42,136 nucleotides of DNA from Candidatus Micrarchaeota archaeon CG1_02_49_24 (GCA_001871535.1 MNVF01000048.1:1-42136); one strand, 5' to 3'; counted from the first letter of the stretch, positions 6,351-41,979 are shown. The notes: a model not told the origin generated them from the letters alone. Numbers and translations are program-made.

Positions 6351-6360
6351 TCAATTGAAT

Positions 6361-11765: not shown

Positions 11766-12184
11766 TTGCCATTCCACATCCATCTAGGTCTGTTTGGTGC
11801 AAAGTTCCAGACATTTTTGAATAAATAAACGTTATCAAAAAAAGTATCATCTCCTATTAGTATTGCACCTTCAATATATGCTAATTTTTCAGTCGTTCCC
11901 ATGATAAAATAATCTTTTTCAGAAATTTTTTTATCAAAATCTGCAGACAGTATCTGTTCTATCTCTTTTTTCCTGGCAATTAAAAGTTCGCAGCTTTGGC
12001 AAAATCGGCAGGTTTTGTTCAAATTAAGAATCATTTTTCTTTTTTTTATTGCAATCGTTAGAGGAAGTTTTTTTATCTTCGTTGCATGATCGCATTTGGG
12101 GCATTTGGAAAAAGCACAATCAGGATAGGGATTCAGAAAAAAATAATATCTTTCTTTCATCTTTCTGGATTTACCCATAGTCAA
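11762..12184 (-). CDS. Zn-ribbon hypothetical protein embedded in the R-M operon
   Basis: CPKC...(33 aa)...CRFCQSC cysteine pairs. 140 aa. A/T-rich. No family recognised. Confidence 0.5.
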   Translation of the reverse strand: MTMGKSRKMKERYYFFLNPYPDCAFSKCPKCDHATKIKKLPLTIAIKKRKMILNLNKTCRFCQSCELLIARKKEIEQILSADFDKKISEKDYFIMGTTEKLAYIEGAILIGDDTFFDNVYLFKNVWNFAPNRPRWMWNGK

Positions 12185-12269
12185 CCAATCCTCATCAAAT
12201 TCTTCTTAGTCTCCTCTTCCAACCTATCCGATTCCTTAAACTGTTCAGAAAGCTCAGCAGTTAGTTTTT

Positions 12270-13529
12270 TCATTTCCATTTCCTCTTGATAACCTGCCAG
12301 TGCCCAGCACTGGTCGTGCCTTTTCTTTTTAGCAGTTTTTTATCCTTCAATTTCTTTATGTACTCTTTTATAGTATCAAGTCTAATCCCTAAATTGGCAG
12401 CTAATGCCGTTCTGGATAGTTTGGGATTGCCTGCCAATATATTCAGTATTTTCAGCTCTAGTTCGGTAATGTTAACTGGGGGGGTAGTTCTCTCCACTGT
12501 TTTAGCATCCTTCCCAACCCGCTTGAACACAGTTACAAACTGCCTTCCGACTTCCTCAAACAGGGTATCCGGTGCTTTTGACAATATCAGTCGTATCCCG
12601 CGGCCCCATTTCTCTATGAAATGTACCCGGTGGAGCATCTCAGCTATGAGTTCATTGCGCCGTTCTGACACACCCCCGCGACGTATCCGCGCAATCGTCA
12701 GCCCGCCGTAAAGCAAACCAGGGCTGCGGAGTTCCACCCTGTCAGTGAATACGGCTATGCTCACAGAATCATAGAGATGGTAATCGCGATGGCAGAAAGC
12801 GTTTATGATTGCTTCGCGTGTAGCCTCTTTGGGTATTTCCGGCACGTCAACCCTGTAAAGCCCTTCAAGGCGCATTCCAAGGTATGTATTCCGCGCTATA
12901 TATCCTTCTGCTTGCCCAATGAGATAAAACAGGTCGCCTTCGTATTCCTTCCTGTCAATGATGACTGCCGAATCAGTGCCGGCAAACACTGCACACCGCA
13001 ATTTTGCGTTGGGAAAGAATTTTTGCGGCTTGCGGGCGAACAGGAGCACTGCGGCATTAAGGATGCGCCCATTGGCTAGCAGGCTCAGTTTACTTAGCGA
13101 GTTTTTAACAGATACGTATCCAAGACCGGCAAGCTTCAAGAATTTTCTTAGCTTATTAGAGCTTATGTCAGTTAATTTTGCGCTTTGGCAGTTTTGCTTG
13201 TCCCAGCGCAGGGCATCCTTGTTTTTTGCAAGGATTATGCGCTCAAGCTCGCCGCCGCTTACCTGCTGGTCCTCATCACCAACTCGCATGTATGCCCTTC
13301 CATATGCTCTATATGGTGCATTTTGGCCGGAAAACTTAATGCAGATACACTGCCTGCCATCAAACTCAACCACTTCTATAACCGGATATACACGCGGCTC
13401 TATATGCGAGGAAATTGCCTGACTGATTGTTCTAATAGTAGTGTCAGCAACTTGCTGGCCCAGGATTATGCCATCATTCCCTATCCCGAAATACAGTTCG
13501 CCCTTTCCGTGCTTGTTAAGAATTGCCAC
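12270..13529 (-). CDS. Schlafen/AlbA_2 + HATPase_c_4-like + wHTH protein (COG2865 type), 5' end frameshifted
   Basis: Paralog of 15434-16810 (NKHGKGELYFGIGNDG; REAIINAFCHRDY; GLLYGGLT; C-terminal wHTH). The true N-terminus [12 protein letters not shown] starts at ATG 13600 in another frame, disrupted at an A6 run (13565-13570). Confidence 0.75.
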   Translation of the reverse strand: MAILNKHGKGELYFGIGNDGIILGQQVADTTIRTISQAISSHIEPRVYPVIEVVEFDGRQCICIKFSGQNAPYRAYGRAYMRVGDEDQQVSGGELERIILAKNKDALRWDKQNCQSAKLTDISSNKLRKFLKLAGLGYVSVKNSLSKLSLLANGRILNAAVLLFARKPQKFFPNAKLRCAVFAGTDSAVIIDRKEYEGDLFYLIGQAEGYIARNTYLGMRLEGLYRVDVPEIPKEATREAIINAFCHRDYHLYDSVSIAVFTDRVELRSPGLLYGGLTIARIRRGGVSERRNELIAEMLHRVHFIEKWGRGIRLILSKAPDTLFEEVGRQFVTVFKRVGKDAKTVERTTPPVNITELELKILNILAGNPKLSRTALAANLGIRLDTIKEYIKKLKDKKLLKRKGTTSAGHWQVIKRKWK

Positions 13530-13592
13530 AATGGAGATTAACGCATCCTTCAGTTCGGATGTTGTTTTTTCAACTCAAGCGTTTCTGATTCC

Positions 13593-15128
13593 TTAAACAT
13601 CATACCCTAGCCCCTTGAAGTTCTTCTTTATCTCTTCTTCCAACTCTTTTGATTTTTTGAATTGTTCTGAGAGTTCGGATGTAAGTCTCTTCATTTTATC
13701 TTGGAATTTTTCGTCATCCTCTTCTACCTCTTCAGTTCCAACATACCTGCCAGGAGTAAGTATATGCTCGTGCTTCCTAATCTCATCAAGCTTTACCGAT
13801 TTGCAGAAACCCGGCATATCCTCATATTTTCCGCCTTCGCCTCTCCAGGCATGGTAAGTGTCAGATATTCTCTTGATTTCTTCATCCGTCAGCTCCCTGT
13901 GTCTCCTGTCAATCATTGCGCCCATCTTGCGCGCATCAATAAACAAGACTTCGCCGCGCCTGTCGCGGAATTTGTGATTCTTCTTATCGCGCGCAACGAA
14001 CCACAGGCAGGCTGGAATCATTGTGTTGTAGAAAAGCTGGGACGGCAGGGCAATCATACAATCAACTATGTCCGCCTCAACTATTTTCCTGCGAATTTCT
14101 CCCTCACCGGACGTATTGGACGACATGGAACCATTCGCTAGGACAAAACCCGCAATTCCCGCAGGCGAGAGATGATGGATAAAGTGCTGCACCCAGGCAA
14201 AGTTTGCGTTTCCCGCAGGCGGAATGCCATATTTCCAGCGCACGTCGTCTTTGAGTTGTTCCCCTCCCCAGTCGCTCATGTTGAATGGCGGGTTGGCAAG
14301 TATGAACTCAGCTTTCAGGTCTTTATGGAGGTCGTTATGGAAACTGTCGCCCAATTGTATATTAGCGTCAATCCCCCGTATTGCAAGGTTCATGGTACAT
14401 AATCTCCAGGTGGTAGCGTTTGATTCCTGCCCATAAACTGAAATGTCCCCTAGTTTCCCCTGGCGCTCCTTAACAAATTTCTCGCTCTGGACAAACATTC
14501 CCCCTGAGCCGCAGCACGGGTCGTATATACGTCCTTTGTAGGGCTCTATCATTTCAACAAGGACGCGAACTATGCAGCGGGGAGTATAGAATTGCCCCCC
14601 TTTCTTGCCTTCAGCATCTGCAAACTGCCCTAAAAAGTATTCATAAACGCGTCCCAGGATATCCTTGCCTTTGCTTTCTGAATCACCCAATCCAATAGTC
14701 CCTATCAAATCGATTAATTCACCTAATCGTTGCTTATCAAGTGCAGGGCGTGCGTAATTTTTTGGAAGAACACCTTTAAGTTTAGGATTTTCATTTTCTA
14801 TTGCATCCATTGCATCATCTATAATCTTCCCAATTTCAGGCCGTTTTGCATTGCTCTGCAAATGGTCCCACCGTGCTTCCTTAGGCACCCAGAAAACGTT
14901 CTTCCTTTTGTATTCGTCCCTTTCTTCAGGCCCGAGGCTGTCGGTATCTTTTTTCAGTTCATCATAGCGTTCTTTGAATGAATCCGATATGTGTTTGAGA
15001 AAAATCAGGCCAAGCGCAACATGTTTGTATTCAGCAGCGTCCATATTACTTCGCATTTTGTCTGCTGCCTGCCAGAGCTTCTGCTCGAATCCAAGGTTTG
15101 CGCCGTTATTTTTTTCTTTAACCATCAA
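13593..15128 (-). CDS. hsdM: Type I R-M N6-adenine DNA methyltransferase subunit
   Basis: N-terminal [34 protein letters not shown], motif [11 protein letters not shown], and motif IV NPPF ([11 protein letters not shown]). Confidence 0.95.
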
Positions 15129-15216
15129 TCCACCCTCTACAGCACCGCCATCTTCCCGGCAATCGGCTTGCCATTCCTCATGGAAATCTTCCCACAGCCT
15201 TTTGGAGTTGTTTCCA

Positions 15217-15441
15217 TTAATATTTTCTCTCCCATTTGGAAGGCTCGATAATCTTCTCCCCTTCCTTCTGCAGCATGTCCATTAGCTTCTTCCTCGTCTC
15301 GGAAATCATGCCTACGGCGTCATCTGGAGTTTTCGCATTCTGGACAGTAATCCTGTAGGACATGCCGGAAGCAAACCGGCTGATGCCAACACTCACCGTT
15401 TTCTCCCCGCTCACGGTTTTCTCATCAGTTTCATCATCCAT
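15217..15441 (-). CDS. Small hypothetical protein (74 aa) upstream of hsdM
   Basis: ATG 15441 overlaps the upstream stop by 8 nt (ATGGATGA). [34 protein letters not shown]... No family recognised. Confidence 0.4.
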
Positions 15442-16810
15442 TTGAATCACCCTTTTTGCTAGGGTTCCATTTCCCACAGCTCTTTTTTATCTCCCAATGC
15501 CCGCCCTTGTCAGGGCCCACGCGCTTCAGCACGCCGTCTTTGGTGAGCTTGCGCAACCGGGAGCGGATGGTGCTGATGGGCTTGCGGAGTTTCTGCGCAA
15601 TCGCCTTCTTTGAGATGGTCGGGTCGGAGAGGATAATTTCGATGAGTTTCTGGTACTTTTCAGGCACTTTGCAGGCATTCTCCGAACCTTTTTCGACGAT
15701 ATTTTCAGGCACTGGGCTCTTTCTCTTGAACACGGTGATGAAATGGCGCCCGACTTCCTTGAACGAAGCCGTTGGCTCTTTCTGCAATATCAGGCGGATG
15801 CCGCGGCCCCAGGCTTCGGCGTAATGGATGCGCTGCAACATGCTGACGATAAGTTCATTTCGCCTCTCAGAGACGCCTTCCTTTATAATGCGCTCAATCG
15901 TCAGCCCACCATAAAGCAAGCCGGGGCTGCTGATTTCCACCCGGTCGTTGAAGATGGCCACGTGCACCGAATCTGGATTATGATAATCCCGGTGGCAGAA
16001 GGCATTGATGATTGCCTCACGCAGCGCCGAACGGTCGATTTCAGGAACATCAACCCGTGCCAGTCCTTCCAACCGCTCGCCCACGTGGATGTTCTTGAGG
16101 ACATACGCTTGGGCATCTTCGATAAGGGTGAACAGGTCGCCCTCGAAGTCCTTCTTGTCAAGGATTGTGGCCGAGCCGGTGAATACGGCGCAGCGAAGCT
16201 TGGCGTTGTGGAAGAATTTCTGCGGCGAGCGCCCGAACAAGAGTATGGCGGCGTTCGTGAGCGCCCCGCTCGGTGATAGTATAAGGCCCATGTTGTGCAA
16301 TGCGAGATCTCTTGATTCGAGTTCAAGATTGGCCTTTTCTAGGAAAACGCCTAATTTTCCGGAGTCAATGTCATTGGACATGGCGCCTGGGCAGGGTTTG
16401 TCGTCCCAGTGCAAGGCGTCCTTGCTCTCCCGTATAATTAGCTCTCGCAGTTCCTTGCCGCTCAAGACGGGATTCTTGTCGCCCACGCGGGTGTAGGCGC
16501 GCCCATAGGCAAAATAAGGCATCTGGTTCCCGCTGACTTTGACGCGGATGCAGGGCTTCCCATCGATTCGCTCTTCCTGGATGTTAGGGAATATCTCCGG
16601 CTCGATATGGTCTTGGATGGATTTGGAGATGTCTGGCACTGTCATCTTTCCGATATCCTGCCCGGCCGCCTTTCCGTCGTCCTCTATGCCGAAGATGACT
16701 TCGCCCTGTCCGTGCTTGTTGAGCATGGCGCAGATAGAAATAATGGCCTCCTTGAGTTCGGAGGTTGATTTCTTGAGTTCAAGTGACTCTGATTCTTTGA
16801 GTTGCATCAT
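15434..16810 (-). CDS. Schlafen/AlbA_2 + HATPase_c_4-like + wHTH protein (COG2865 type)
   Basis: ESESLELKKS..NKHGQGEVIFGIEDDG (AlbA_2-type N-terminus), REAIINAFCHRDY..GLLYGGLT core, and C-terminal wHTH ISKKAIAQKLRKPISTIRSRLRKLTKDGVLKRVG. ATG 16810 overlaps the Csa3-like stop (TGATG). Confidence 0.8.
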   Translation of the reverse strand: MMQLKESESLELKKSTSELKEAIISICAMLNKHGQGEVIFGIEDDGKAAGQDIGKMTVPDISKSIQDHIEPEIFPNIQEERIDGKPCIRVKVSGNQMPYFAYGRAYTRVGDKNPVLSGKELRELIIRESKDALHWDDKPCPGAMSNDIDSGKLGVFLEKANLELESRDLALHNMGLILSPSGALTNAAILLFGRSPQKFFHNAKLRCAVFTGSATILDKKDFEGDLFTLIEDAQAYVLKNIHVGERLEGLARVDVPEIDRSALREAIINAFCHRDYHNPDSVHVAIFNDRVEISSPGLLYGGLTIERIIKEGVSERRNELIVSMLQRIHYAEAWGRGIRLILQKEPTASFKEVGRHFITVFKRKSPVPENIVEKGSENACKVPEKYQKLIEIILSDPTISKKAIAQKLRKPISTIRSRLRKLTKDGVLKRVGPDKGGHWEIKKSCGKWNPSKKGDSNG

Positions 16811-17403
16811 CACAGCACCGCCATCTTCCCGGTCAGCGTAATCTCAAACTTCTCATCCACATATCCGGCATCCTTCAATTCCTTCAAATGCTGATAGAGC
16901 ATGCCCGGAGTTTTGCCCAATTTGTCCGCAATCTCCGCAATCGGTTTCCCATTTCTCTTCTCAATCTCAAGCAGGAGCTCGCGTTTCGGCTCGGAAAGCC
17001 CGAAAGTCAGTTTCGGCAGCTCCACCAATTTGTTCAGGTCCGGCAATTCATTGCACACAATTTTTTCAACAAGCTCGGGCCGCGCATAGCACCCATACAA
17101 AACTCCCTGGGCCATGAGCTTCCACCCGCCTGAAACGTTCACAATCGCCCGGTTGTTTTTCTCCAGGAGCTCAACAGTCTTCTTGGCAACCGCAAAGATG
17201 TCCGCGCAGTCAACCACAATCTCCCTGATGTCAGCCACCGTGCCGTAAAGCTCCTTCACCTTCACCAGCCCCTCCTGCACCTTCTTTTCACCAGTGGAGC
17301 TGTTTGCTATCACCAGCACTATCTTGCCCGGCGAAAACGCATGCGCCGCTGCCACGAACGGCTCGAAAGAATAGAAAGTGGCTATCAGTGTAGTGTCGGC
17401 CAT
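16810..17403 (-). CDS. csa3: Csa3-like regulator (CARF-type Rossmann domain + C-terminal wHTH)
   Basis: TLIATFYSFEPFV..KIVLVIA..(~70 aa)..VNVSGGWKLMAQGVL follows the Csa3/CARF layout (beta1-[GF]-x-E, late GG-x-[KR]-x-[LM] motif). C-terminal LSEPKRELLLEIEKRNGKPIAEIADKLGKTPGMLYQHLKELKDAGYV is a wHTH. Confidence 0.6.
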   Translation of the reverse strand: MADTTLIATFYSFEPFVAAAHAFSPGKIVLVIANSSTGEKKVQEGLVKVKELYGTVADIREIVVDCADIFAVAKKTVELLEKNNRAIVNVSGGWKLMAQGVLYGCYARPELVEKIVCNELPDLNKLVELPKLTFGLSEPKRELLLEIEKRNGKPIAEIADKLGKTPGMLYQHLKELKDAGYVDEKFEITLTGKMAVL

Positions 17404-18756
17404 CTAATCATCACGTAAATGATAATAAAGTTCTTCCAGCTGTTTAACTGTATTAACTAACTGTTTTTTACAAAATTCAGGATTTTTCCAATCAATTTTC
17501 TTATTTGTGTATCTCTTGTTCCATTCAAATCCGATCTGTATTTGATTTACTTCCGCCCCATATTGTTTTGCGGTATCAATAAAATCCTGTATCGTCTTAA
17601 ACTCTAATTTAATTTTTTTATCGCTTTTTTTAAATTGAAGGGCAGGTTTCCAGTTATCTTCTGGAGTTTTATGACGATCTAGACGAAATTCCAGATTACA
17701 ACGGGTTGCAAATGGACCTAACTGCCCACCTTTTAGGGACTTGTAATCCTGTATCGCCATGTAGACGGTTCGCCCATAGTTCTTCTGCCCCGTAGTTTTT
17801 TTGTTCCATGATGCAATCTTAGTTATTCTTGGCCAAATTTCTTTCGATCTTAATTTTTTATTCGGGTCATGCAAAGTTAAAACAACTTTGAATTCATCTA
17901 AATTTACATTTGTAGTAAAATGAAGGTTCTTACTCTTCTCTTTACCCAGTTTACCAAAGTAAGATTTTACCCACGAATCATTTTTCTTCTCTCTTTCTTT
18001 TCCTTTTTCACCTGACGTCTGCATCTCCAGTTTTTCGCCTTTTTGACTTTTTATAGCTGCAAAGTTTATCAGACATCGAACGTCGTGATTAAAGCTAGAT
18101 TGGTCATTGCCATAAAATCCATAGAAGTCATCTGTCAATCTCATCACCCTCAGACAATCTAGGTATTGTTCTATCAGAAATTTTTCGATTTTTACTTGAG
18201 ATTTTTTTTCAGCATCAGAAAGCACGCCATAGAGTTCATCCCAGTCTATTGTGTGCCATATCTCACGCTTGCGTTTCATCAGCCTGAAACCGCCCTCCTC
18301 TATCTTCTTAGCATATTTTTTTAGCTGAACTGGGTCTTTTTTGCTATCTGTCTTTGCTTCCAAGAATAGTATTACGTCGTTATATTCTATCATAGCATCT
18401 ATAATTATCTTGTCTCCTCCGCGTCCAGGTTTTTTTTCATTTGGCGTAGTACTCTTTGATAGAAACAGCAAGTATGCGTCCTTTTTTGGAAGTGTTTTTA
18501 GTTCTTTGTCGCTGATTTGGGAGGATACTCGTATTATTTCACTTAAATCTTTCTTACTTATTTTAATCTTAGTTGAGATGAATTTTGTAAACGCATCCCT
18601 AGTTCTTAGACACTCAGGTGAGCGAATAAAAAAAAGAAGGTCTTTCGTGACGTTATTCTCTACGTTCTTCAATTCTCCGTCCTCTTTTTGACGTTGGTGC
18701 CAAAAGAGGTTCTCCCATTTTTCGTCTCCCACGCTTATCCCTTGTTCTGGCAACAT
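17404..18756 (-). CDS. Large hypothetical protein with RecB/Cas4-like PD-(D/E)xK signature; first gene of the operon
   Basis: IIDAMIEYNDVILFLEAKTDSKKDPVQLKKY gives D...E-A-K...Q-x-x-x-Y. The ~300-aa C-terminal region is unassigned. ATG 18756 is preferred over the TTG at 18774 used by the track. A/T-rich. Confidence 0.5.
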   Translation of the reverse strand: MLPEQGISVGDEKWENLFWHQRQKEDGELKNVENNVTKDLLFFIRSPECLRTRDAFTKFISTKIKISKKDLSEIIRVSSQISDKELKTLPKKDAYLLFLSKSTTPNEKKPGRGGDKIIIDAMIEYNDVILFLEAKTDSKKDPVQLKKYAKKIEEGGFRLMKRKREIWHTIDWDELYGVLSDAEKKSQVKIEKFLIEQYLDCLRVMRLTDDFYGFYGNDQSSFNHDVRCLINFAAIKSQKGEKLEMQTSGEKGKEREKKNDSWVKSYFGKLGKEKSKNLHFTTNVNLDEFKVVLTLHDPNKKLRSKEIWPRITKIASWNKKTTGQKNYGRTVYMAIQDYKSLKGGQLGPFATRCNLEFRLDRHKTPEDNWKPALQFKKSDKKIKLEFKTIQDFIDTAKQYGAEVNQIQIGFEWNKRYTNKKIDWKNPEFCKKQLVNTVKQLEELYYHLRDD

Positions 18757-18838
18757 ATAAATGTGTTGTGTCAAGATAGTTATTTGATAGTTAAGGAATA
18801 AACTATACTGTTAAGGATGTAGGTGTTATGGTGGTTGC

Positions 18839-21921: not shown

Positions 21922-22617
21922 ATGATTAAGGCAATCCTATTCGATTTGGACAATACCCTGATTGACTTCTCAGGCTTCAAGCGGGAGAGCGCGCTTGCTG
22001 CAGCCAGTGCCATGAGAAAGGCAGGCGTGCATCTTTCCGGGCATTCGCTTTACGGGCGCATTTACGAAGTCTATAATGAGAAGGGGATTGAGTACCAGCG
22101 CACGTTTGGGGATGTGCTCTACGGATTGGATTTGGACCCACATACGCGCGAGCGTGCACGGCAGGCGGCAATTATTGCCTATACCAAGAAGAAATATGAG
22201 TGCCTGAAGCCACGGCCAAAGGCCATGCAGCTGCTAACATCCCTCAGGGCGAAATACACGCTGGCCATTGTCACGGATGCGCCCAGGGACAAGGCATGGC
22301 AGCGGCTCATTCTCTCAGGGCTGGACGGGTTTTTCTATCCTGTTGTGACTTTCAACGATACGGGCGAGGAGAAGCCTGCGGTTGCGCCGTTCAGGAGGGC
22401 GCTTTCCATCTTGAAAGTGAAACCTGTGGATGCGCTATTCGTAGGTGACAATCCGGAAAGGGACATTATCGGCGCGAAAAAGATTGGGATGAAAACCTGC
22501 CTTGCGAAATACGGCTGCCAGGATTACCACGAAGAGATGGATGTGGCGGATTACAGGATTGGGAAGTTTGAGGAACTGAAAGAGGTTATTGAAAGATTGA
22601 AAGCCAGTGAGCAATAA
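21922..22617 (+). CDS. HAD-superfamily hydrolase
   Basis: MIKAILFDLDNTLIDF (DxDxT motif I), IVTDAP (motif II) and GDNPERDIIGAKKIGMKT (motif IV). ATG 21922 is preferred over the track start at 21874. Confidence 0.85.
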   Translation: MIKAILFDLDNTLIDFSGFKRESALAAASAMRKAGVHLSGHSLYGRIYEVYNEKGIEYQRTFGDVLYGLDLDPHTRERARQAAIIAYTKKKYECLKPRPKAMQLLTSLRAKYTLAIVTDAPRDKAWQRLILSGLDGFFYPVVTFNDTGEEKPAVAPFRRALSILKVKPVDALFVGDNPERDIIGAKKIGMKTCLAKYGCQDYHEEMDVADYRIGKFEELKEVIERLKASEQ

Positions 22618-22675
22618 CCCAACGCATACATGCACATTTAAATAGGTGAATACACATAGATACACTGGTGATTAT

Positions 22676-22900
22676 ATGGTGAACGTAACTATCTCAATAA
22701 CAACGGACATCAAGGAGATGATTGACAGGCATCCTGAGATTAACTGGTCCGAGGTTGCCCGTCAGGCCTGGAAAGAGAAAGCGCAACAGCTTGAGCTTTT
22801 GAATAAATTAACTATCGGAAGCAAAGCCAGCGACAAGGATGTGGATGAGCTGGCAAAATTGCTGAAAAAAGGGATTGCTGAATGGCATGAGAGAAGATAG
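22676..22900 (+). CDS. vapB: Antitoxin-like small protein upstream of the PIN gene
   Basis: 74 aa. MVNVTISITTDIKEMIDRH.. has an N-terminal beta-strand/helix pattern typical of archaeal VapB-type partners. Its stop is 2 nt before the PIN ATG. Confidence 0.5.
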   Translation: MVNVTISITTDIKEMIDRHPEINWSEVARQAWKEKAQQLELLNKLTIGSKASDKDVDELAKLLKKGIAEWHERR

Positions 22901-22902
22901 AT

Positions 22903-23328
22903 ATGGAACTCGTGGCAGATACCAACATTGTCGCAGCCGCTATCTTACGTGATGGGCTGACAAGAAGCCTGCTTTTCCGTTCAGATATCCAGGCATACTC
23001 TCCAGCGCATCTTTTGGATGAACTGGAAAAATACAAACCAGAGTTTATGGAAAAATCCGGGCTGAGCCCAGATTCTTATGACGATGCCGTTAAATTGGTG
23101 CTTAGAAATGTGTCTACTTCCCAGTTGGATAATTATGCCCAGTTTGAGCAAGAAGCGAAAAAAATATCACCTGACCCTGGCGATTGGCCGTTCTTTGCGC
23201 TTGCCCTGGCAAAAAATTGTGCAGTTTGGAGCAATGATAAAAAGCTGAAAAATCAGAAGCAGGTAACGGTTTATGATACAACAGAGTTGTATGGCATCCT
23301 GCCTAAACCGGAAAGGGGCACGTTATGA
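22903..23328 (+). CDS. vapC: PIN-domain ribonuclease (VapC-like toxin)
   Basis: MELVADTNIVAAAIL (N-terminal D-T-N), ..E.. and C-terminal DWPFFALALAKNCAVWSNDKKL acidic residues. 141 aa. Confidence 0.75.
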   Translation: MELVADTNIVAAAILRDGLTRSLLFRSDIQAYSPAHLLDELEKYKPEFMEKSGLSPDSYDDAVKLVLRNVSTSQLDNYAQFEQEAKKISPDPGDWPFFALALAKNCAVWSNDKKLKNQKQVTVYDTTELYGILPKPERGTL

Positions 23329-23600
23329 AAAAACATAAAGAGCACTGCGATTATCACGGCCAGTGCAAAAACAAGGCATATCGGGAAGTTTATCCGGTGC
23401 GAAATGGCAAATTCTACAGCGGATGGAACTATTTATGCAGGAAACATTTCGGGCAGGAGGTTAAGAAAGGGAAGAAATTTTTCTGGGCGCGCATGACAAA
23501 AGATGGTGAAGCGGCGCCGCTCATCCCTGTGAACAATACAGCAGTTAACTATAGCAAGGAGAAGTCTGTCAGCTTGGAAAGCGTGATGAAAAAGAAATAG
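23325..23600 (+). CDS. Small Cys/His-rich hypothetical protein
   Basis: HCDYHGQC...(24 aa)...CRKH suggests a possible Zn-binding site. ATGA overlap with the PIN gene. Confidence 0.45.
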   Translation: MKKHKEHCDYHGQCKNKAYREVYPVRNGKFYSGWNYLCRKHFGQEVKKGKKFFWARMTKDGEAAPLIPVNNTAVNYSKEKSVSLESVMKKK

Positions 23601-23624
23601 AAATGAAAGTATTTGGTGATTGAA

Positions 23625-24227
23625 ATGGTTATGGACATGTTAAAGATTGAATCGCCATTTATACGTCATGAAGTTGATGGTGATTACATAGTTTCTTCTG
23701 AGATAGCTGAAGGATATGAGTGGGTATTTAATGACAAAAATGTGCTGGCTATCGAGAAGCTTGATGGGACTAATGTAAGTATAATCATTGAAGATGGTGT
23801 AGTTAAAAGTGTGTGGAATAGAACAGAGCGCATCCCTTTCATAAACAAGGGCAAGGCGCATATCATAAGTGGAATTTTAGAGAGTTTCCAGCGTGGTTAT
23901 TTTGAACTTGCTGATGGCCAGTTCTTCGGGGAGCTGATAGGTAAAAAAGTTAATGGCAATCCATATAAAATTGATGGGCATTTATGGATTCCATTTGCTA
24001 CCTATGCACGAAATCATTTATCATACACTTCATGGGGTAAATATCCCAAGACTTTTGATGGAATTAGTGCATGGTTTGAGAAAGATTTGTTTAGTTTGTT
24101 TATAAGAAGACGGACACAGGAAATAGTTCCGCCGGAAGGGATAGTGTTTACACATCCTGACGGAAGGCTTGCAAAACTGCGCAGGGACATGTTTAGCTGG
24201 TATACTGAACCACGCCATAAAGAGTGA
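23625..24227 (+). CDS. ATP-dependent RNA ligase-like nucleotidyltransferase
   Basis: Motif I IEKLDGTN (KxDGxN), motif III FFGELIG, motif IV PEGIVF and motif V LAKLRRDMF. ATG 23625 is preferred over the TTG at 23613. Confidence 0.7.
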   Translation: MVMDMLKIESPFIRHEVDGDYIVSSEIAEGYEWVFNDKNVLAIEKLDGTNVSIIIEDGVVKSVWNRTERIPFINKGKAHIISGILESFQRGYFELADGQFFGELIGKKVNGNPYKIDGHLWIPFATYARNHLSYTSWGKYPKTFDGISAWFEKDLFSLFIRRRTQEIVPPEGIVFTHPDGRLAKLRRDMFSWYTEPRHKE

Positions 24228-24273
24228 TCGCAACGGCGCAGAATTGAAATATACAAATTTGTATTATAAAAAA

Positions 24274-25257
24274 ATGTATAATCCTGAAAGCTTTGATTTG
24301 GAATCGGAATTGAAATGGATTGGTGAAATGATGGAAAAGATAAACTCGACTAGTGCATATTACATCAAGCTAGGCAAAGGTGGAGAATTTGAGAAGGATT
24401 GTCTGAAGAATAATTATCTAAAACTCGGTTATTGTCAGGATGACCATGAACTATGTTTAAGTGGAAAATGGATGGAGATTATAGAACAACGGGAACTACG
24501 GACACCTGAGGTCAAACGTGGAGCTAAAAACCAGGTAAGACAGCTCAGAACTTTTTATGAAGCAGATGAACATACCCTTTGGATTACTTTTATGAATGAA
24601 AAATTGTACTGGTGTTTTGCTGAAAAAAAGATAGAAAAATTGCCAGGCAATTACAAAATCCGTAGACTTATTGGGAAATGGGCACATACAGATATATTTG
24701 GAAACGATCTGTTTGAGAATAAGCTAAGTGGAAACTTGACGCGGACAAAAGGATATCCACAAACTATCTGCCGCATCAATGATGCATATGACCAGCTAAT
24801 AAAGAAGATAAACGGTGAAAAAAACGAAGTCGCGGAAAAAGCAAACCTGAATAAAGCCGACTTGGAAACCCAAATCGGATGTCTGATTAAAAGTTTCCCT
24901 CCAAAGGATTTTGAGATACTGGTTGAATTGATTTTCAGTAGAGCAGGACTTCAAAAGATAAGTGAAACCGGCAAGACTCAAAAAAATATCGACATTCTTC
25001 TAGTTTCGCCAATTACTAACGAAACTTTTTCTGTACAGGTTAAATCCAGCGCGAATTATAGGGATTATGACGAATACAGACAGAAATTTGATGATTCCGG
25101 TTACAATCGATTCTTTTTCGTTGTTCATTCGCCAAAAAAAGAGTTGGAAGATAAGAAACTAGAACACAAATTAGAAGATGTATGGCTGACAAATGAGTTA
25201 ACGAAAATGGTAGTAAAGTACGGATTAGTTGATTGGGTTATTGACAAGGCGTGTTGA
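24274..25257 (+). CDS. Protein with C-terminal Mrr-like restriction endonuclease domain
   Basis: FEILVELIFSRAGLQKISETGKTQKNIDILLVSPITNETFSVQVKSS is an Mrr_cat-type D...Q-x-K core. The N-terminal ~200 aa are unassigned. ATG 24274 avoids overlap with the ligase gene. Confidence 0.6.
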   Translation: MYNPESFDLESELKWIGEMMEKINSTSAYYIKLGKGGEFEKDCLKNNYLKLGYCQDDHELCLSGKWMEIIEQRELRTPEVKRGAKNQVRQLRTFYEADEHTLWITFMNEKLYWCFAEKKIEKLPGNYKIRRLIGKWAHTDIFGNDLFENKLSGNLTRTKGYPQTICRINDAYDQLIKKINGEKNEVAEKANLNKADLETQIGCLIKSFPPKDFEILVELIFSRAGLQKISETGKTQKNIDILLVSPITNETFSVQVKSSANYRDYDEYRQKFDDSGYNRFFFVVHSPKKELEDKKLEHKLEDVWLTNELTKMVVKYGLVDWVIDKAC

Positions 25258-25314
25258 TTCCATGGTCTCTCTAACCTTTTACGGCGGCGCGAACGAAATC
25301 GGCGGCAATAAAAT
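25258..25314 (+). pseudogene. 57-nt duplicate of the RNase J gene 5' end (direct repeat with 26488-26544)
   Basis: ttccatggtctctctaaccttttacggcggcgcgaacgaaatcggcggcaataaaat is identical at both places. It encodes MVSLTFYGGANEIGGNKI and then breaks off. Confidence 0.9.
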
Positions 25315-25320
25315 TACAGC

Positions 25321-25401
25321 GAAGAGATGGATGTGGCGGATTTCAGGATTGGGAAATTCGAGAAATTGCTGGATGTAATGGAAAGGATTGGAGGGGATTA
25401 G
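25321..25401 (+). pseudogene. Diverged duplicate of the HAD hydrolase 3' end
   Basis: Encodes EEMDVADFRIGKFEKLLDVMERIGGD*, compared with the HAD C-terminus HEEMDVADYRIGKFEELKEVIERLKASEQ* (22530-22617). It directly abuts the RNase J 5' fragment. Confidence 0.8.
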
Positions 25402-26481
25402 ATGGCATTAATTGGGATGAAGAAAAAAGGGTCAAGCAAAATCGATTTTTTGGAAGAAGCATCGTTTGAAAAAGATAATAAAGAGGACTACCTGCATAAA
25501 ATTTTAGAAGAAAATCCGCTCCTCATTGTGTCGGAGATTTTTGATACGAAAGTTGTTCTTCTAAAAAGTAAATTTTCATTTTCATCTGGAGATGAAGCTG
25601 ACATGGTACTATGTGACGCCACAGGTGATCTGGTAATTGTAGAACTGAAAAGGGGGAGGGCGCCCAGGGACTCAATCGCCCAGCTTATGGATTACGCATC
25701 GCAAATCAGTAAGATGAGCATTGAAGAATTGCTGGTGCAGACGCGTTTTAGGGATATATCAGAGGTGATAACGGAGTTTGGCGTTGATGTCAATGAAAAC
25801 AAAGAAAATTTTGAGGAAACATTCAAAAAATCAATGGATAGCCCTAGATTGATGCTGGTTTCATACGATATTCCAGATGACATAAAACGAGTTGCTAAGT
25901 GGCTTAGGACAAAAGGCATAATGATTAATTGCGTGGAATTCGATTATTTCGCCAGTGGAGAGAATGAATTGTTTGTTCCCAAAGTAATCGGTTCAGATGA
26001 AACTGCGCAGATAATGGCAGAGTCCTTTACAAAAGCTGAGAAACTCAATTTTGATTACACCAGCCTCTTGATACGTGCTTTCAAGGATAAAAAACCAGGA
26101 ATTACTAACAGAGAAGGAACGCATGGTAATTGGATGGGGTTGCCTGCAGGGTATAATGATGTTCATTTTGAATGGCACCTGAAAGGAAGAAGACCTAATA
26201 AGGAAATTCAGGTATGCCTAGATTTTGAGAATGATGACAAAAATATAAATCAGCAACGCTTGGAACAATTTAAGCAGATGGAACGGCAATTCGAAGAAAA
26301 AATCGGTGAGAAACTCGATTTTATCCCTCACGGAAGAAACTGGATGCGTGTCTGCGCTAAAAGGCCGGTGGAAACGCTGGAAAAAGCAAAGGAAGATGAT
26401 AACTTGAATTGGGCAGTAGACACTATGGTTAAGTTCTATGAAGTCCTAAAGCCAGAACTTGACAGAATAATGGCTAAATAG
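25402..26481 (+). CDS. NucS/DUF91-like PD-(D/E)xK nuclease domain protein with DUF4268-like C-terminal region
   Basis: GDEADMVLCDATGDLVIVELKRGRAPRDSIAQLMDY gives D...E-L-K...Q-x-x-x-Y. The C-terminal half is recalled as DUF4268-like (NWMGLPAGYNDVHFEWHL). A/T-rich. Confidence 0.6.
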   Translation: MALIGMKKKGSSKIDFLEEASFEKDNKEDYLHKILEENPLLIVSEIFDTKVVLLKSKFSFSSGDEADMVLCDATGDLVIVELKRGRAPRDSIAQLMDYASQISKMSIEELLVQTRFRDISEVITEFGVDVNENKENFEETFKKSMDSPRLMLVSYDIPDDIKRVAKWLRTKGIMINCVEFDYFASGENELFVPKVIGSDETAQIMAESFTKAEKLNFDYTSLLIRAFKDKKPGITNREGTHGNWMGLPAGYNDVHFEWHLKGRRPNKEIQVCLDFENDDKNINQQRLEQFKQMERQFEEKIGEKLDFIPHGRNWMRVCAKRPVETLEKAKEDDNLNWAVDTMVKFYEVLKPELDRIMAK

Positions 26482-26491
26482 GGTAATTTCC

Positions 26492-27850
26492 ATGGTCTCT
26501 CTAACCTTTTACGGCGGCGCGAACGAAATCGGCGGCAATAAAATCCTCCTTGAGGACAAGGGCGCCAGAATCTACCTTGACTTCGGCCAGAGCTTCAGCT
26601 TCGGCGAGGATTATTTCTACGACTGGCTGCAGCCAAGGAGCGCACACGGCCTGGAAGTGTATTTCGAGTTCGGCATGCTGCCCAAGGTGCCAAGGCTTTA
26701 CAACAAAGCCATGCTTGAAAAAACTGACTTGGAATACGAAAAGCCCGACATTGACGCGGTATTCATCTCGCACTCGCACTCTGACCACGTGAACCATCTG
26801 CCATTCATTGACGAATCCATCCCTGTTTACATGGGCCACGGCACCCATAAATTGCTTGAGACATACCACACGCTTTACCCACAATTCAGCGACATAGGCG
26901 AACACGCCAATCTCAACCTCTTCAAGTCAGGGGATATAATACAAGTCAAACACCTGGTAATCGAGCCTATCCATGTGGAGCATTCGGTGCCGGGAGCCTA
27001 CGGGTTCATAGTCCATACCAGCAAGGGGCCGCTAATCTATACAGGAGATTTGCGCATGCACGGTCCGCAATGCGAAATGACAAAGGAATTCGTGGAAAAG
27101 TCCGCGGCCTGCAAGCCCTATGCCATGCTCGTAGAAGGCACGAGGATGGGCTATGGGCAGCATCATAACTTCACCGAGGCGGAAGTGGAAAAGGAAGTTG
27201 AGCAGAAAATAAAGGCATCCAATGGGCTTGTATTCGGCTATTTTGCCATGTCCAATGTGGACAGGTTCATGTCATTCTACCGCGCAACCGTGAAGAACGG
27301 GCGGAAGCTGGTGATTGACACCAGGCATGCATATATTATTGATAAGCTGAGGGAGAAAATCCCTGCGCTGCCGGACGTGATGGCTGACTGGAATATCCTG
27401 GTTTATTACAGACAGGCAAAGAGCGGCACCTACAAGGAAACGGATTACTACAATTATGAGCGCAAATTCATGCCCAAAATGATAACCCACAAGGAAATTG
27501 CAAAAAGCCAGAAGGAGTTCGTGATGCACATGAGCTTCAACAAGCTGATGGAACTGGTTTACATCCAGCCGAAGAATGCAGACTATATCTATTCGTCATC
27601 CGAGCATTTCCTGGAAGGCGAGGAGAATGAGGAGGAAAAGAGGGTGCTTGACAACTGGATGCGGCATTTCGGGGTGGCTTTTCACAAAGCACACTGCTCA
27701 GGCCATGCGAGCAGGCAGGACTTGGAGGATATGGTGAAGAAAATCAATCCGAAGGTGCTTATCCCCATCCATACGCAGAATGCCGGGGATTTCAAGGGGA
27801 TGCATTCAAATGTGTGGATACCTGAAAAAGAAAAGAGAATGGAGATATAA
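26492..27850 (+). CDS. rnj: Archaeal-type RNase J (MBL / beta-CASP ribonuclease)
   Basis: FYGGANEIGGNKILL N-terminus, HSHSDH (HxHxDH), and C-terminal HCSGHASRQDL..PIHTQN beta-CASP motif C. ~450 aa. Confidence 0.8.
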   Translation: MVSLTFYGGANEIGGNKILLEDKGARIYLDFGQSFSFGEDYFYDWLQPRSAHGLEVYFEFGMLPKVPRLYNKAMLEKTDLEYEKPDIDAVFISHSHSDHVNHLPFIDESIPVYMGHGTHKLLETYHTLYPQFSDIGEHANLNLFKSGDIIQVKHLVIEPIHVEHSVPGAYGFIVHTSKGPLIYTGDLRMHGPQCEMTKEFVEKSAACKPYAMLVEGTRMGYGQHHNFTEAEVEKEVEQKIKASNGLVFGYFAMSNVDRFMSFYRATVKNGRKLVIDTRHAYIIDKLREKIPALPDVMADWNILVYYRQAKSGTYKETDYYNYERKFMPKMITHKEIAKSQKEFVMHMSFNKLMELVYIQPKNADYIYSSSEHFLEGEENEEEKRVLDNWMRHFGVAFHKAHCSGHASRQDLEDMVKKINPKVLIPIHTQNAGDFKGMHSNVWIPEKEKRMEI

Positions 27851-28254: not shown

Positions 28255-29172
28255 TCAGCCAACGGCATCCAGATAAATATCTAACGCCTGCCCGGCATCC
28301 TTTGCAACCAGCATGGAAAGCGGGCGGAAATCGCCTTTGTCTGCCTTTTCAAGCGCAGAATAGTATGCACGGCGCTCTTCCCTTCTCAGAATTGTTGGGG
28401 GAAACCCTGCACGCATAAGGCGCAAGTTCATCAATAAGCGCGCCAGCCTGCCGTTCCCGTCAATGAACGGGTGGATTCTGACGCATTCGTGGTGTATTTT
28501 GACCGAGGAATAAATCGCTTCTATGCCTCTGCGTTTGTCATTTAGTTCGGAATAGACTCCCTTCATCAGCTCCGGCACCTTGCGCCAGTTCGGAAGAACT
28601 ACTTTCGAGCCTTGGATGAAAACCTGCTCGTGGCGGTAAAAGCCTGCGTTATTGGGGCTGATTTTGTCAAGAATTACTGCGTGGAGATTAAGCACATCCA
28701 TCTCAGTTATTCCCTTTTTCCCATCTGCCATTTTCTCAAGCAGGCCTATTGCCTCTGCGTGGTTGGTCGCCTCCAGGTGCTCATTCACAGACTTGCCGCG
28801 TATCGTCATGCCCTTGCGGAGAACAAGCCAGGTTTCTCGCAGTGAGAGGCGGTTTCCCTCTATTGCGTTGGAGTGGTAAGTCATATCGACCTCGAATTTT
28901 TCACGGAGGCGGTTTACCATCTCTGGGGAAAGCGGGCGCAGCTTGTTTAGCCGCTCCAGCTTGCCTTCGAGTGCTTTTGCCAGGTGTTCGTCAATCCATG
29001 TGCCATTGCCTGCGTTAAATTCAATGCCAGTTTTTTTTGCGTATTCTTCAGCCTCGGCAGCACTTGGGAAATATTCGAGGACGTTCTGCTTCACCTTGCC
29101 ATCTTCCCGCCTATTTTCAACTAGTTCATAGTAGTAGGTGTTGCCTCTTGCCCTTCGCCGGATGAATGCCAT
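28255..29172 (-). CDS. Fic/DOC family protein (AMPylase-type)
   Basis: HPFIDGNGRLARLLMN matches the HxFx(D/E)GNGRxxR active-site motif. Confidence 0.9.
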   Translation of the reverse strand: MAFIRRRARGNTYYYELVENRREDGKVKQNVLEYFPSAAEAEEYAKKTGIEFNAGNGTWIDEHLAKALEGKLERLNKLRPLSPEMVNRLREKFEVDMTYHSNAIEGNRLSLRETWLVLRKGMTIRGKSVNEHLEATNHAEAIGLLEKMADGKKGITEMDVLNLHAVILDKISPNNAGFYRHEQVFIQGSKVVLPNWRKVPELMKGVYSELNDKRRGIEAIYSSVKIHHECVRIHPFIDGNGRLARLLMNLRLMRAGFPPTILRREERRAYYSALEKADKGDFRPLSMLVAKDAGQALDIYLDAVG

Positions 29173-39660: not shown

Positions 39661-41979
39661 ATGCTTTCCATGATTACCTCTTTACGCTTAATCAATTGGA
39701 AATCCCACCATGATTCCTCGTTCAAATTCACGAAAGGAATTAACCTGCTGGTGGGCATCATGGGCTCAGGGAAGAGCAGCGTGCTGGATGCTATTTGTTT
39801 CGCGCTGTTCGGCACGTTTCCAGCCCTTGAAAGGGGAAAGGTGAAGATTGCCGACCTGGTTAATTTCAGGAATAGGGATGCCGGATCAGTGATTGAGCTG
39901 GAGCTGGAGATTGGGGCAGATAAATATGGCATCAAGAGAGTGATTAAGGGAATCGGGGACACCAAGAAAAGCGATGCATTTTTCTACAAAAACGGAAGTC
40001 TGGTGGACAAGGGCGTGGCAGGAGTCAATGCGCTTGTGGAGAAGCATTTTGGCATTGATTATGATTTGTACACGCGGGCGATTTACTCGGCGCAAAACGA
40101 GATTGATTATTTCCTCAACCTGCCCCCCAGGAAAAGAAAGGAGGAGATTGACAGGCTGCTGGGGCTTGACAGGTTTGAATTGGCGCGCGGCAACCTGGTG
40201 GCCGTAACGAATAGGGTAAAATATATACTCACAACCATGCAGGAAGAGAGCGGGCTGAGGAAGCCTGAGGAATTGAAAGCGTCAATAGCCGGGCACGAGG
40301 CGAAACACGGCAAAATCTCAGGCGAGCTGGCCAGGCTCAGGCAGGAATCCGATGGACTGTCAAAGAGGGCAGGCGGGCTGAAATTGCAATACGACTCGCT
40401 CGCACAAAACAAAAAGCAATATGAGCAGATGTCCCAGCAGCAATCCAGGGCAACGATGATTGTGGAAAGGCTGGAGAGCGAGCTTAGGGATGCCGACACA
40501 GGCAAATTGGCAAAAGATTATGAAGAGCAAACGAATATCGTTGAAAGTTACAGGGTGCGGCTGGCGGATATACGTGCCAGCCTGAAAACCAGCCAGCAGG
40601 AGATGGGCAGGTATGAAAAGGAGGCAGGCGGGCTGGAGCGCGAGCTCAGCCAGATGGATGGAAAACGGGCGGAGGTTGAATTACTGCAGAGAAGCGTAAA
40701 AATAATCCTGGGCGATGCCGATTCAAAGCAATTTCTTGCGCTCCTCGAGCAGGAGACGAACAAGATGATTGGGCTGAAAAACCAGTTGGCAGCGGAAAAT
40801 GCGCGGGCAGGGGAGCTGAGAAAGCTCGAGGGGCTGCCTGATGCCGCGGGAACCTGCCCGGTGTGCAAGAAACCTTTGAGCGGCCATGAGGCATTGGTGC
40901 TCAAGAAAGAGCGGGAATTTGCAATCCAGACTATTGTTGAGGGCATAAAATCAATGGAACATGAGCTGATGGTGCTTACCACCAGCTATAAGATAAAGAA
41001 GGACTGCTATGAGCGGGCACGCTCATCTGCCGTGGGGATTGAAAGGTTGCAAACTGAATTGCTGGCTGAGCAGGGAGTCAAGGCAACGCTCGAGAGCCTG
41101 AAGGGCAGGCTGGAGATGGCACGGAACAGCCGCGAACTCCTGGAAAAGGAGGCGGCCGATTTGGATTCCCATCTGCAGAAGAATGCCCTCAGGCTCGGGC
41201 AGTTTTCACAGGTGAAGGCAAAATTCGACGAGCTGGATGCCAGCAAACAGGCGCTCCTTGAGGCAGGCAAGGCGCTGGCAGCCATTGATTATTCTGAAAA
41301 GGAGTTTGAATCGGTTGCCAAGGAGCTTGGGGAGGCGAAATTATCCCAGAAGGAAATCGAGGGGAAGCTGGCAATGGCCGCAAGGGAGGCGCAGTTTGTC
41401 TCTGAGAGATTAGTGGAGCTTAGGGCTGAGATGGCACGCAGAGAGGACAAGGGCAGGAAAATCGAGGCCTATGTGAATGCTGGGGTGGAGCTCAACAGGT
41501 TCAAGGAAGCGCTTGGCAAGACACAAATGACAGTCAGGGGCGATTTGATTGGCGCATTTAACGAGATTGTGAACGAGCTGTGGCCGTTTATTTACCCCTA
41601 CAGGGATTACACCCAAATCCGGCTGAATGTGACTGACATTGGCTATACATTCGAGGCGTTCAACGGCGAATGGAAATCATTCGAGGTGGTTGCCAGCGGC
41701 GGAGAAAAAGCCTGCCTGGCAATGGTGATGAGGGTGGCGTTTGCCATTGTGCTGGCGCCTGCTGCGGGCTGGCTAATCCTGGATGAGCCGACACACAATC
41801 TCGACAAGGAGGCAATTTTCATGTTCTCGGAAGCGCTTCAAAATAAAATACCCGGGATTGTGAACCAGACGTTTGTGATTACCCATGAAACATCGCTCCT
41901 GAATCTCACGGTGAACAAATACAGATTGGCAAGGGAGAAGGAATTGAATGAAGATACGGCTGTGGAAGTTGTTGCTTAG
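39661..41979 (+). CDS. rad50: Rad50/SbcC-like SMC-family ATPase
   Basis: Walker A GIMGSGKSSVLDAI, long coiled coil with Zn-hook CPVC (GTCPVCKKPL), signature SGGEKACLAM and Walker B LILDEPTHNLD. Confidence 0.85.
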   Translation: MLSMITSLRLINWKSHHDSSFKFTKGINLLVGIMGSGKSSVLDAICFALFGTFPALERGKVKIADLVNFRNRDAGSVIELELEIGADKYGIKRVIKGIGDTKKSDAFFYKNGSLVDKGVAGVNALVEKHFGIDYDLYTRAIYSAQNEIDYFLNLPPRKRKEEIDRLLGLDRFELARGNLVAVTNRVKYILTTMQEESGLRKPEELKASIAGHEAKHGKISGELARLRQESDGLSKRAGGLKLQYDSLAQNKKQYEQMSQQQSRATMIVERLESELRDADTGKLAKDYEEQTNIVESYRVRLADIRASLKTSQQEMGRYEKEAGGLERELSQMDGKRAEVELLQRSVKIILGDADSKQFLALLEQETNKMIGLKNQLAAENARAGELRKLEGLPDAAGTCPVCKKPLSGHEALVLKKEREFAIQTIVEGIKSMEHELMVLTTSYKIKKDCYERARSSAVGIERLQTELLAEQGVKATLESLKGRLEMARNSRELLEKEAADLDSHLQKNALRLGQFSQVKAKFDELDASKQALLEAGKALAAIDYSEKEFESVAKELGEAKLSQKEIEGKLAMAAREAQFVSERLVELRAEMARREDKGRKIEAYVNAGVELNRFKEALGKTQMTVRGDLIGAFNEIVNELWPFIYPYRDYTQIRLNVTDIGYTFEAFNGEWKSFEVVASGGEKACLAMVMRVAFAIVLAPAAGWLILDEPTHNLDKEAIFMFSEALQNKIPGIVNQTFVITHETSLLNLTVNKYRLAREKELNEDTAVEVVA

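Follow-up and report, generated by a model that had tools for sequence, protein, structure and literature searches.

How did two alternative defence-type cassettes come to lie one behind the other between the same pair of core genes? This question is raised by contig MNVF01000048.1 (GCA_001871535.1) of a Crystal Geyser-type groundwater Candidatus Micrarchaeota (DPANN), which appears under the names CG08_land_8_20_14_0_20_49 and CG1_02_49_24. The window analysed is the whole contig, 42,136 bp in length. In it, the interval between a HAD-family hydrolase gene and the RNase J gene (rnj) holds cassette A, a short copy of the start of rnj, a relic of a HAD 3' end and cassette B. The footprint is that of one illegitimate joint and ordinary homologous recombination, which stacked two alternative alleles of the same slot. 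By Pfam, the order on the + strand is HAD, cassette A, copy 1 of a 57-nt repeat (the 57-mer), HAD relic, cassette B, and copy 2 of the 57-mer with rnj. An earlier note on this DNA had called a HAD gene, VapBC, ligase and Mrr genes in A, a NucS-like gene in B and an intact RNase J, in agreement with the Pfam domains. The GC content is ~50% in HAD and rnj versus 36-43% in both cassettes (36-46% over the parts of cassette A). The elements of the structure are as follows.

21922-22617, + strand: intact HAD-family hydrolase gene, HAD1 (Pfam Hydrolase/HAD_2/Hydrolase_like), left core flank of the slot
22523-22617, + strand: resident HAD tail, linked to cassette A and paralogous to the relic
22646-25257, + strand: cassette A (Pfam domains; weak PADLOC match to PDC-S02)
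25258-25314, + strand: 57-mer copy 1, exact repeat, a relic of rnj -4 to +53 joined to cassette A
25313-25314, no strand: illegitimate joint of rnj +53 to HAD -89, with a 2-nt AT microhomology in which the two repeat families overlap
25313-25401, + strand: HAD 3' relic of the alternative allele, 89 nt, ending in TAG (25399-25401); 79/89 identical to the L037 HAD 3' end
25402-26481, + strand: cassette B, a single gene of 359 aa (Pfam DUF4268; weak NucS_C/SduA_C)
25315-26544, + strand: head-to-tail unit of 1,230 bp (relic, B, leader and 57-mer); the 57-mers start 1,230 nt apart
26474-26487, + strand: native rnj leader, CTAAATAGGGTAAT, which includes the B stop codon; the homology of contigs L002 and L057 starts here
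26488-26544, + strand: 57-mer copy 2, exact repeat, the true rnj start (ATG 26492)
26492-27850, + strand: intact RNase J gene (beta-CASP/MBL; Pfam Lactamase_B_2, RMMBL), right core flank of the slot

The repeat that links these elements, TTCCATGGTCTCTCTAACCTTTTACGGCGGCGCGAACGAAATCGGCGGCAATAAAAT, occurs exactly at 25258-25314 and 26488-26544 and spans rnj from -4 to +53. Allowing up to three mismatches, the window holds these 2 matches, with 0 expected from 100 shuffles, which bears out the exact duplication of the rnj start reported in the earlier note. The ATG of copy 1 (25262) opens an out-of-frame open reading frame (ORF) of 38 aa that stops at 25378. The note had also described a fusion of copy 1 to a copy of the HAD 3' end; the fusion is spacer-free and diverged as claimed, and its length has to be corrected from ~80 nt to 89 nt with its own stop codon. 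Over 25313-25385 the relic is 82% identical to the resident tail (22523-22595), whereas the two 57-mers are 100% identical. Such a contrast would follow if the 57-mers are copies by descent, or were where the crossover took place, and the two tails belong to different alleles. The relic translates as YSEEMDVADFRIGKFEKLLDVMERIGGD and the resident HAD ends in ...YHEEMDVADYRIGKFEELKEVIERLKASEQ, each followed by a stop.

Formally, the structure is a tandem duplication of the segment from HAD -89 to rnj +53 in which the copies carry different alleles, and a downstream endpoint (rnj +53) is indeed joined to an upstream one (HAD -89). However, the copies differ in content. Copy 1 holds tail A and cassette A (2.7 kb), copy 2 holds tail B and cassette B (1.2 kb), and equal content is seen only in extra B-to-B junctions. 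Spontaneous tandem duplication and amplification mediated by microhomology is a general process, and the head-to-tail 2-nt joint resembles it, as does a unit-to-unit junction that implies at least two copies. The first "copy" differs in both cassette (A) and HAD tail, so that under simple duplication an allele must have been replaced afterwards.

A joint of this kind could also be made by an assembler, and the earlier note had itself raised a chimera of two strain variants. Contigs were collected by exact-protein look-ups in NCBI metagenome-assembled genomes (MAGs), ENA assemblies named k127 or k141 (MEGAHIT-style), JGI assemblies and Logan contigs. An exact scan of a metagenome contig collection for the 57-mer had no hit, evidently because these samples are not part of it. 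The census of 57-mer contexts comprises 19 distinct contigs; T and C give the base at position 52 of the repeat.

A to 57-mer (T) to relic: 14 contigs
B to 57-mer (T) to relic: 5 contigs
B to 57-mer (C) to relic: 1 contig
B to 57-mer (T) to rnj: 4 contigs
B to 57-mer (C) to rnj: 4 contigs
other to 57-mer (C) to rnj: 2 contigs
A to 57-mer to rnj: 0 contigs

The joint from A through the 57-mer into the relic is genuine and not a mis-assembly. Because its partners share only 2 nt, neither a de Bruijn nor an overlap assembler can make it without spanning reads, and because the k127 and k141 word sizes exceed the 57-nt repeat, bases specific to A, bases of the repeat and bases of the relic lie together within their k-mers. 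In identical form, the joint is present in 14 distinct contigs from different samples and several assemblers, including k127 and k141, so the stacked structure holds and the worry about a chimera does not. Strain variants do co-occur, since a third allele (L002/L057) shares its sample or MAG with A/B contigs, and several MAG contigs end at the repeat. However, neither an A-only contig nor a full contig with B behind its own HAD (HAD2) appears in samples of the same aquifer, and a chimeric mis-assembly of co-occurring A-only and B-only variants is extremely improbable. The 231-aa HAD1 product has exact matches on 20 contigs and nearest homologues at ~75% identity; an exact-protein look-up with the 247-aa version, from an alternative GTG start at 21874, had no match. 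Population MAGs break exactly at the 57-mer/unit boundary in GCA_002778915.1 (end of PEYA01000012, start of PEYA01000063) and GCA_013330115.1 (end of DUIY01000136), and as a result RNase J is deposited in N-terminally truncated forms of 436, 442 and 304 aa.

The source of the relic is indicated by a relative. A search with HAD led to protein P0080, whose C-terminus, …YSEEMDVTDFRIGKFEELIEVMEKIGGD, agrees with the relic peptide at 23/28 positions and has the same end. In L037 (GCA_964358515.1), the contig of P0080, HAD is preceded by the same two genes as in the window, with 90-91% amino-acid identity (and ~90% identity for the backbone on that side of HAD); the HAD is full-length, and a homologue of B with 95% amino-acid identity starts right after its stop. 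Window positions 25313-26286 align to L037 without gaps, collinearly and at 93.4% identity, and the first aligned base is the joint. The relic stop adjoins the B start in the same way as in L037 (TAG directly followed by ATG), and the relic carries a Shine-Dalgarno-like GGAGGGG (25390-25396) upstream of that start. Because a full-length HAD is directly followed by B there, L037 shows the alternative allele of the slot, and the relic is the final 89 nt of HAD from that allele. L037 is the sole HAD-to-B allele found; it comes from another assembly, and its contig ends within B. The rnj contig of the L037 genome was not recovered by the rnj homologue search or from the B cluster listing. The next-nearest homologue of B, P0122 (65%), is located among the polysaccharide genes of an unrelated cluster and is uninformative on the slot.

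The B unit is also joined to itself. A circular-type junction, from B through the 57-mer into the HAD 3' end, had been predicted from the window, and it was found in 6 contigs (L006, L007, L010, L013, L014 and L056). L056 has the order B end, 57-mer (T), relic, B, 57-mer (C), rnj. Three k141-style contigs stop exactly 84 nt (141-57) past the step from A into the 57-mer, which is read as a merge with a second incoming path in the assembly graph. The cluster of B proteins has 23 members, mostly on contigs of 1,229-1,390 nt, approximately the size of the unit. Thus, the B unit of 1,230 bp probably forms a tandem array of variable copy number rather than a free circle: excision should leave a junction from A through the 57-mer into rnj, of which there is no example, and the contigs that leave A do not branch where the 57-mer ends. 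The single B unit in the window may then be a collapsed representation of the array.

Position 52 of the repeat (25309, 26539) is a synonymous T/C polymorphism (AAT/AAC). The A-linked 57-mer has T in 14/14 contigs. 57-mers preceded by B have T or C, before rnj and before the relic alike, and C is commoner in relatives. The pattern suggests exchange or gene conversion between copies of the 57-mer. The site was tried as a marker of polarity and dropped, as all combinations occur except an A-linked copy with C; given mismatch repair, every model is compatible with it, and it does not polarise the event.

In its strict form, the account in the earlier note has the circle forming in another strain, being transferred, and entering the chromosome that carried A through one crossover within the rnj 5' segment; the B-to-57-mer-to-relic junctions of today would be free or re-excised circles. 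The homology segment duplicated around the insert, the permuted donor joint inside it, the donor-type HAD-to-B arrangement of L037 and the circle-type junction in 6 contigs fit this account, for which there are precedents in E. coli (PMC3240628) and in Rhs loci (PMC2935791). However, excision predicts that A to 57-mer to rnj should be as frequent as the circle. This deletion between the repeats, which the note had proposed to look for, was seen in 0/14 contigs, and the end of the 57-mer shows no branch. Additionally, the circle would be 1.2 kb without a replication function, its formation needs the same illegitimate joint anyway, and the B unit of L056, between another B end and rnj, is array-like. 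We regard the strict version, which is contained in the favoured reading below, as possible but less likely than not. A further idea, that the 1.23-kb unit is a free, recombinase-free circular cassette that moves between Micrarchaeota strains through rnj 5' homology, is improbable. If true, it would be an integrase-independent route by which genome-reduced DPANN archaea trade and stack single defence genes, and the B nuclease itself might help by cutting the slot in a homing-like manner.

The reading favoured here, to which we give a little more credence than doubt, is a duplication of the B allele or a circle, followed by recombination through the 57-mer, either as a Campbell insertion or as replacement of the first unit. 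The population would once have held the alleles HAD-tail A-cassette A-rnj and HAD-tail B-cassette B-leader-rnj. A single 2-nt AT joint would have connected HAD -89 of the B allele with rnj +53, giving rise to a head-to-tail unit of 1,230 bp, either in a tandem duplication or in a circle shed by one. Homologous recombination through the 57-nt rnj 5' segment would then have set the unit beside cassette A, by Campbell insertion of a circle or by an A allele replacing the first unit of the duplication. The product would be A-57-mer-relic-B-57-mer-rnj, with the B unit still joined to itself, most likely as a tandem array of variable copy number. Nothing essential would have been lost, since the relic keeps the ribosome-binding site of B and the second 57-mer keeps rnj intact. 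The repeats, the joint and its recurrence in many assemblies, the alternative alleles and the unit-to-unit junction are observed directly; from these we infer the succession of events, the circular form and the number of copies.

Several points weigh against this favoured reading. A homology arm of 57 nt is short for homologous recombination. The allele that would be the recipient, or the product of excision, is absent, as all 14 A-flanked contigs enter the relic (0/14 enter rnj). A circle and a tandem array yield the same assembly graph and the same junction, and contigs cannot separate them. MEGAHIT and IDBA reuse contigs from low k, so that the path from B through the 57-mer into the relic is provisional; countering this caveat, the C-variant junction of L013 is not derivable from the T-only path that leaves A. 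B may equally be the resident, because its divergence from L037 (93% identity) is about that of the backbone (~90%). Finally, a jump in mismatch density at the site homologous to the joint is a coincidence under duplication or a circle, and it is predicted by homology-facilitated illegitimate recombination (HFIR).

HFIR would cast A as the newcomer, in a "C-terminal displacement". Linear donor DNA with HAD-tail A-A-rnj would have anchored in a resident HAD-tail B-B-rnj up to 22470-22527, and its end, broken at rnj +53, would have been joined through AT beside the anchor. The old HAD tail and B would have been shunted downstream, and the unit-to-unit junctions would have arisen later by unequal exchange between 57-mers. 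One end joined at a microhomology is what is seen at 25313-25314, and a candidate anchor lies in the HAD 3' region as follows.

22470-22527, + strand: homology block between the window and L037, 56/58 identical, ending ...GGATTAC where the relic begins

Past 22527 the resident HAD diverges from both L037 and the relic. The density of mismatches between the window HAD and the B-type allele rises from 2/58 to ~9/53 exactly at the position homologous to the joint, as HFIR expects, although few sites are involved (Fisher p ~0.02, post hoc). The B unit (93% identical to L037) has diverged about as much as the backbone (~90%), whereas the HAD interior is only 48-59% identical, and cassette A has moved recently, its ligase being 96.4% identical in nucleotides to that of contig L055 while rnj of L055 is only 92% identical. 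HFIR would also need a single step and no circle, would keep the resident DNA, and has been proposed for analogous effector-immunity arrays of type VI secretion systems (T6SS) (PMC5361080). Against it, copy 1 would be derived from the donor and is nevertheless 57/57 identical to the resident copy, which calls for a nearly conspecific donor; relatives with 79-92% RNase J identity match only 47-48/53 nt of the coding part of the 57-mer. If the donor end had 57 nt of perfect homology to rnj, an ordinary two-sided replacement would have been the easier outcome. The microhomologies known from experimental HFIR are longer than 2 nt, which also counts against this alternative. On balance, HFIR with A incoming is rather unlikely.

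Thus, the Campbell stacking of two cassettes proposed in the earlier note is supported as to the structure and the alternative alleles, whereas the circular intermediate and the role of B as newcomer were not established. The same product is reached by tandem duplication with allele replacement, or by one-sided illegitimate recombination with A incoming.

The HAD gene itself has a separate history. Its interior (window 21975-22440 against L037 2480-2950) is 48-59% identical despite neighbours at ~90%. HAD1 clusters with HADs from those lineages that are closest in rnj (~75% identity), and HAD2 with a more distant subclade (67%). The divergent interior, its conserved neighbours and the different subclades indicate that horizontal transfer has replaced one of the HADs; the breakpoints lie close to the 5' end and around 22440-22470. 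This replacement has no power to polarise the stacking event.

In bacterial pangenomes, hotspots flanked by core genes carry variable restriction, toxin-antitoxin and nuclease cargo, with empty and occupied alleles. The interval between HAD and rnj behaves in a similar way. RNase J orthologues in relatives have 64-92% identity and lie 3' of HAD, and the intervals found through them hold the following.

L043: 0 nt, empty, the HAD stop adjoining the rnj ATG (…GATTAA directly followed by ATG…)
L041: ~0.55 kb, a single membrane-protein ORF
L018/L046: ~0.8 kb, two small ORFs
L016: 3.3 kb, a C25 peptidase and an AAA_14/DUF4143 ATPase
L045: 6.1 kb, AAA, CARF-HTH and GIY-YIG genes
L055: the same RNA ligase as in cassette A, then an ATPase_2 gene, then rnj; no B

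Constant flanks, cargo that varies from 0 to 6.1 kb and an empty allele are thus found across L043, L041, L018/L046, L016, L045, L037 and L055. The PADLOC candidates in the slot are PDC-S11, PDC-S01, PDC-S27 and PDC-S02, beside toxin-antitoxin, Mrr, GIY-YIG and CARF genes. Because relatives show an empty slot or different cargo, HAD-rnj is a hotspot for candidate defence genes, a role assigned by family match, and it is recombinase-free as far as Pfam shows. The hotspot claimed in the earlier note is accordingly borne out by L037 (HAD to B), L043 (empty), L055 (A-like without B) and L016, L018, L041 and L045 (other cargo). The bacterial hotspots differ from this one, which lies in Micrarchaeota and has very small, single-gene insertions against the rnj start codon and no mobile-element genes.

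Direct repeats around a one-gene unit, a possible circular form and repeated insertions at the rnj start might also point to site-specific capture, by an integrase or in an integron-like manner, with the 57-mer as attachment site. However, Pfam shows no integrase, transposase or recombinase domain, either among the ORFs of at least 180 aa in the 42-kb contig or in the cargo that relatives carry in the slot. On its left, the 57-mer ends where cassette A replaces the rnj leader, on its right it ends at the one-off HAD joint, and the cassette borders in other alleles have no common motif. Site-specific capture is very improbable. An integron/integrase system was rejected as a class, as no recombinase domain was found, the borders vary and the only repeat is an rnj 5' fragment.

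A third rnj-adjacent allele exists in the same aquifer (L002, L057), 99.97% identical to the window from 26474 on; the native rnj leader (26474-26487) is common to it, and similar leaders occur in L015, L042 and L054. Both contigs begin in the upstream stretch of this allele, and in one case the sample also yielded an A/B contig. The stretch (L002 1-91; L057 1-142) is non-coding and forms nested GC-rich hairpins (-65.9 kcal/mol, z = -6.9), one loop of which has opposite orientations in the two contigs (TTAAAA versus TTTTAA). It has no credible Rfam match and no copy within the window. In L045, a second RNase J-like ORF (9565-10722), N-terminally truncated to residues 166-452 (59%), lies just 3' of the intact rnj and may be another footprint of partial duplication at the same locus.

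Among known systems, the closest precedents come from bacteria. For the displacement of Rhs tips, a model with a circular intermediate has been put forward (Jackson et al. 2009, PMC2935791). As in Rhs arrays and in the orphan modules of contact-dependent inhibition (CDI) and Rhs systems, an intact gene is followed by a displaced 3' fragment with its linked gene (here HAD, then the 89-nt relic and B). Alternative alleles of other strains are likewise stacked, recombination of short homologous segments through a circle has been proposed, and no dedicated recombinase is involved. Unlike Rhs loci, the flanks here are the housekeeping genes for HAD and RNase J and not a polymorphic toxin, and the "tips" are whole defence-type cassettes. 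The core piece that is kept is, as a mirror image, the 57-nt 5' part of the downstream gene, the primary joint is a 2-nt illegitimate one, and the host is a DPANN archaeon. In place of a toxin tip with its immunity gene, the displaced tip consists of the last ~30 HAD residues, and the linked genes encode a nuclease, a toxin-antitoxin pair and a ligase. Because the tip is not a toxin, the locus is not a member of the Rhs, CDI or T6SS toxin arrays, although it works like one.

HFIR has been proposed for the T6SS effector-immunity displacement arrays of Vibrio cholerae (Kirchberger et al. 2017, PMC5361080). In those arrays too, the arriving module pushes its predecessor downstream, deletes nothing and leaves a 3' relic, with a homologous anchor and one illegitimate end. 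However, the present locus has no effector-immunity logic, its unit is repeated head-to-tail with itself, and the event may have run in either direction. In E. coli, duplication of the homologous locus (lacZ) marks a single crossover with a circle (PMC3240628). The exact 57-mers likewise place a homology segment on both sides of the insert, the insert contains a permuted donor joint (rnj +53/HAD -89, then collinear with the HAD-to-B order of L037), and a circular or tandem-type junction was detected. The differences are a homology of only 57 nt, the absence of an empty recipient among the contigs found, the lack of a replicon or selectable marker, and a circle that is hypothetical. As the recipient allele was not found, the locus departs from a Campbell integration in that one respect. 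Given the bacterial precedents in Rhs, CDI and T6SS arrays, HFIR and Campbell duplication, the locus extends known biology to a new lineage and adds no new principle.

Within that frame, the locus provides a base-pair footprint of the gain and stacking of defence-type genes in a genome-reduced DPANN archaeon without mobile-element genes at the site. It points to strain-level turnover in one aquifer population, with three rnj-adjacent alleles on backbones that are 99.97% identical, and to a candidate defence gene (PDC-S11-like) that appears variable in copy number. With its single copy, the contig as published may represent an array in collapsed form, and the 57-mer repeat is where several MAGs break. 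That candidate gene, B, falls into the PDC-S11 family by PADLOC (5.9e-29), and its N-terminus is a NucS/Shedu-like nuclease region. A sequence search of the PDB with B returned nothing useful.

Cassette A consists of the following parts.

22676-22900, + strand: RHH antitoxin (Pfam)
22903-23328, + strand: PIN_2 toxin (Pfam)
23325-23600, + strand: ORF of 91 aa
23613-24227, + strand: RNA ligase (Pfam RNA_ligase)
24243-24330, + strand: relocated rnj-type leader, 90% identical to the L055 rnj leader
from ATG 24274 or 24331 to 25257, + strand: Mrr_cat-like nuclease (Pfam Mrr_cat)

The ligase, mentioned above, is 98% identical to that of L055 in amino acids, and with an L055 rnj at just 92% this marks a recent move of the cassette. 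Cassette A is itself layered, with an AT-rich leader of 90 nt (…TATACAAATTTGTATTATAAAAAAAT…GGTGAAATG, 24243-24334) between the ligase and the Mrr-like gene. This leader matches L055 1902-1994, directly 5' of the L055 rnj ATG (90%), and the match implies that the Mrr-like gene was inserted between a leader and an rnj start, with ATGG at both edges. In L055, an ATPase is inserted between the ligase and the leader instead. The true start of the Mrr-like gene is probably ATG 24328 or 24331 and not TTG 24169.

Further defence-type genes surround the slot. Upstream, a large island (4971-18774) includes type I restriction-modification genes (hsdR 6485-9544, hsdS 10464-11783, hsdM 13593-15128), a pair of genes of the Schlafen/AlbA_2-HATPase_c_4 type (12270-13529; 15434-16813) and a regulator resembling AbiEi (4971-5633). 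Still further upstream, a DUF6036 nucleotidyltransferase is encoded at 1425-2264. Just 3' of rnj is a Fic-domain gene (28255-29172, - strand) with a PADLOC match to PDC-S04/SoFic, and the length called for the small ORF between rnj and Fic is 96 or 92 aa depending on the assembly, with identical sequence. At the end of the contig, a Rad50/SMC-like ATPase gene (39661-41979) is a candidate part of the homologous-recombination machinery assumed by the proposed mechanism.

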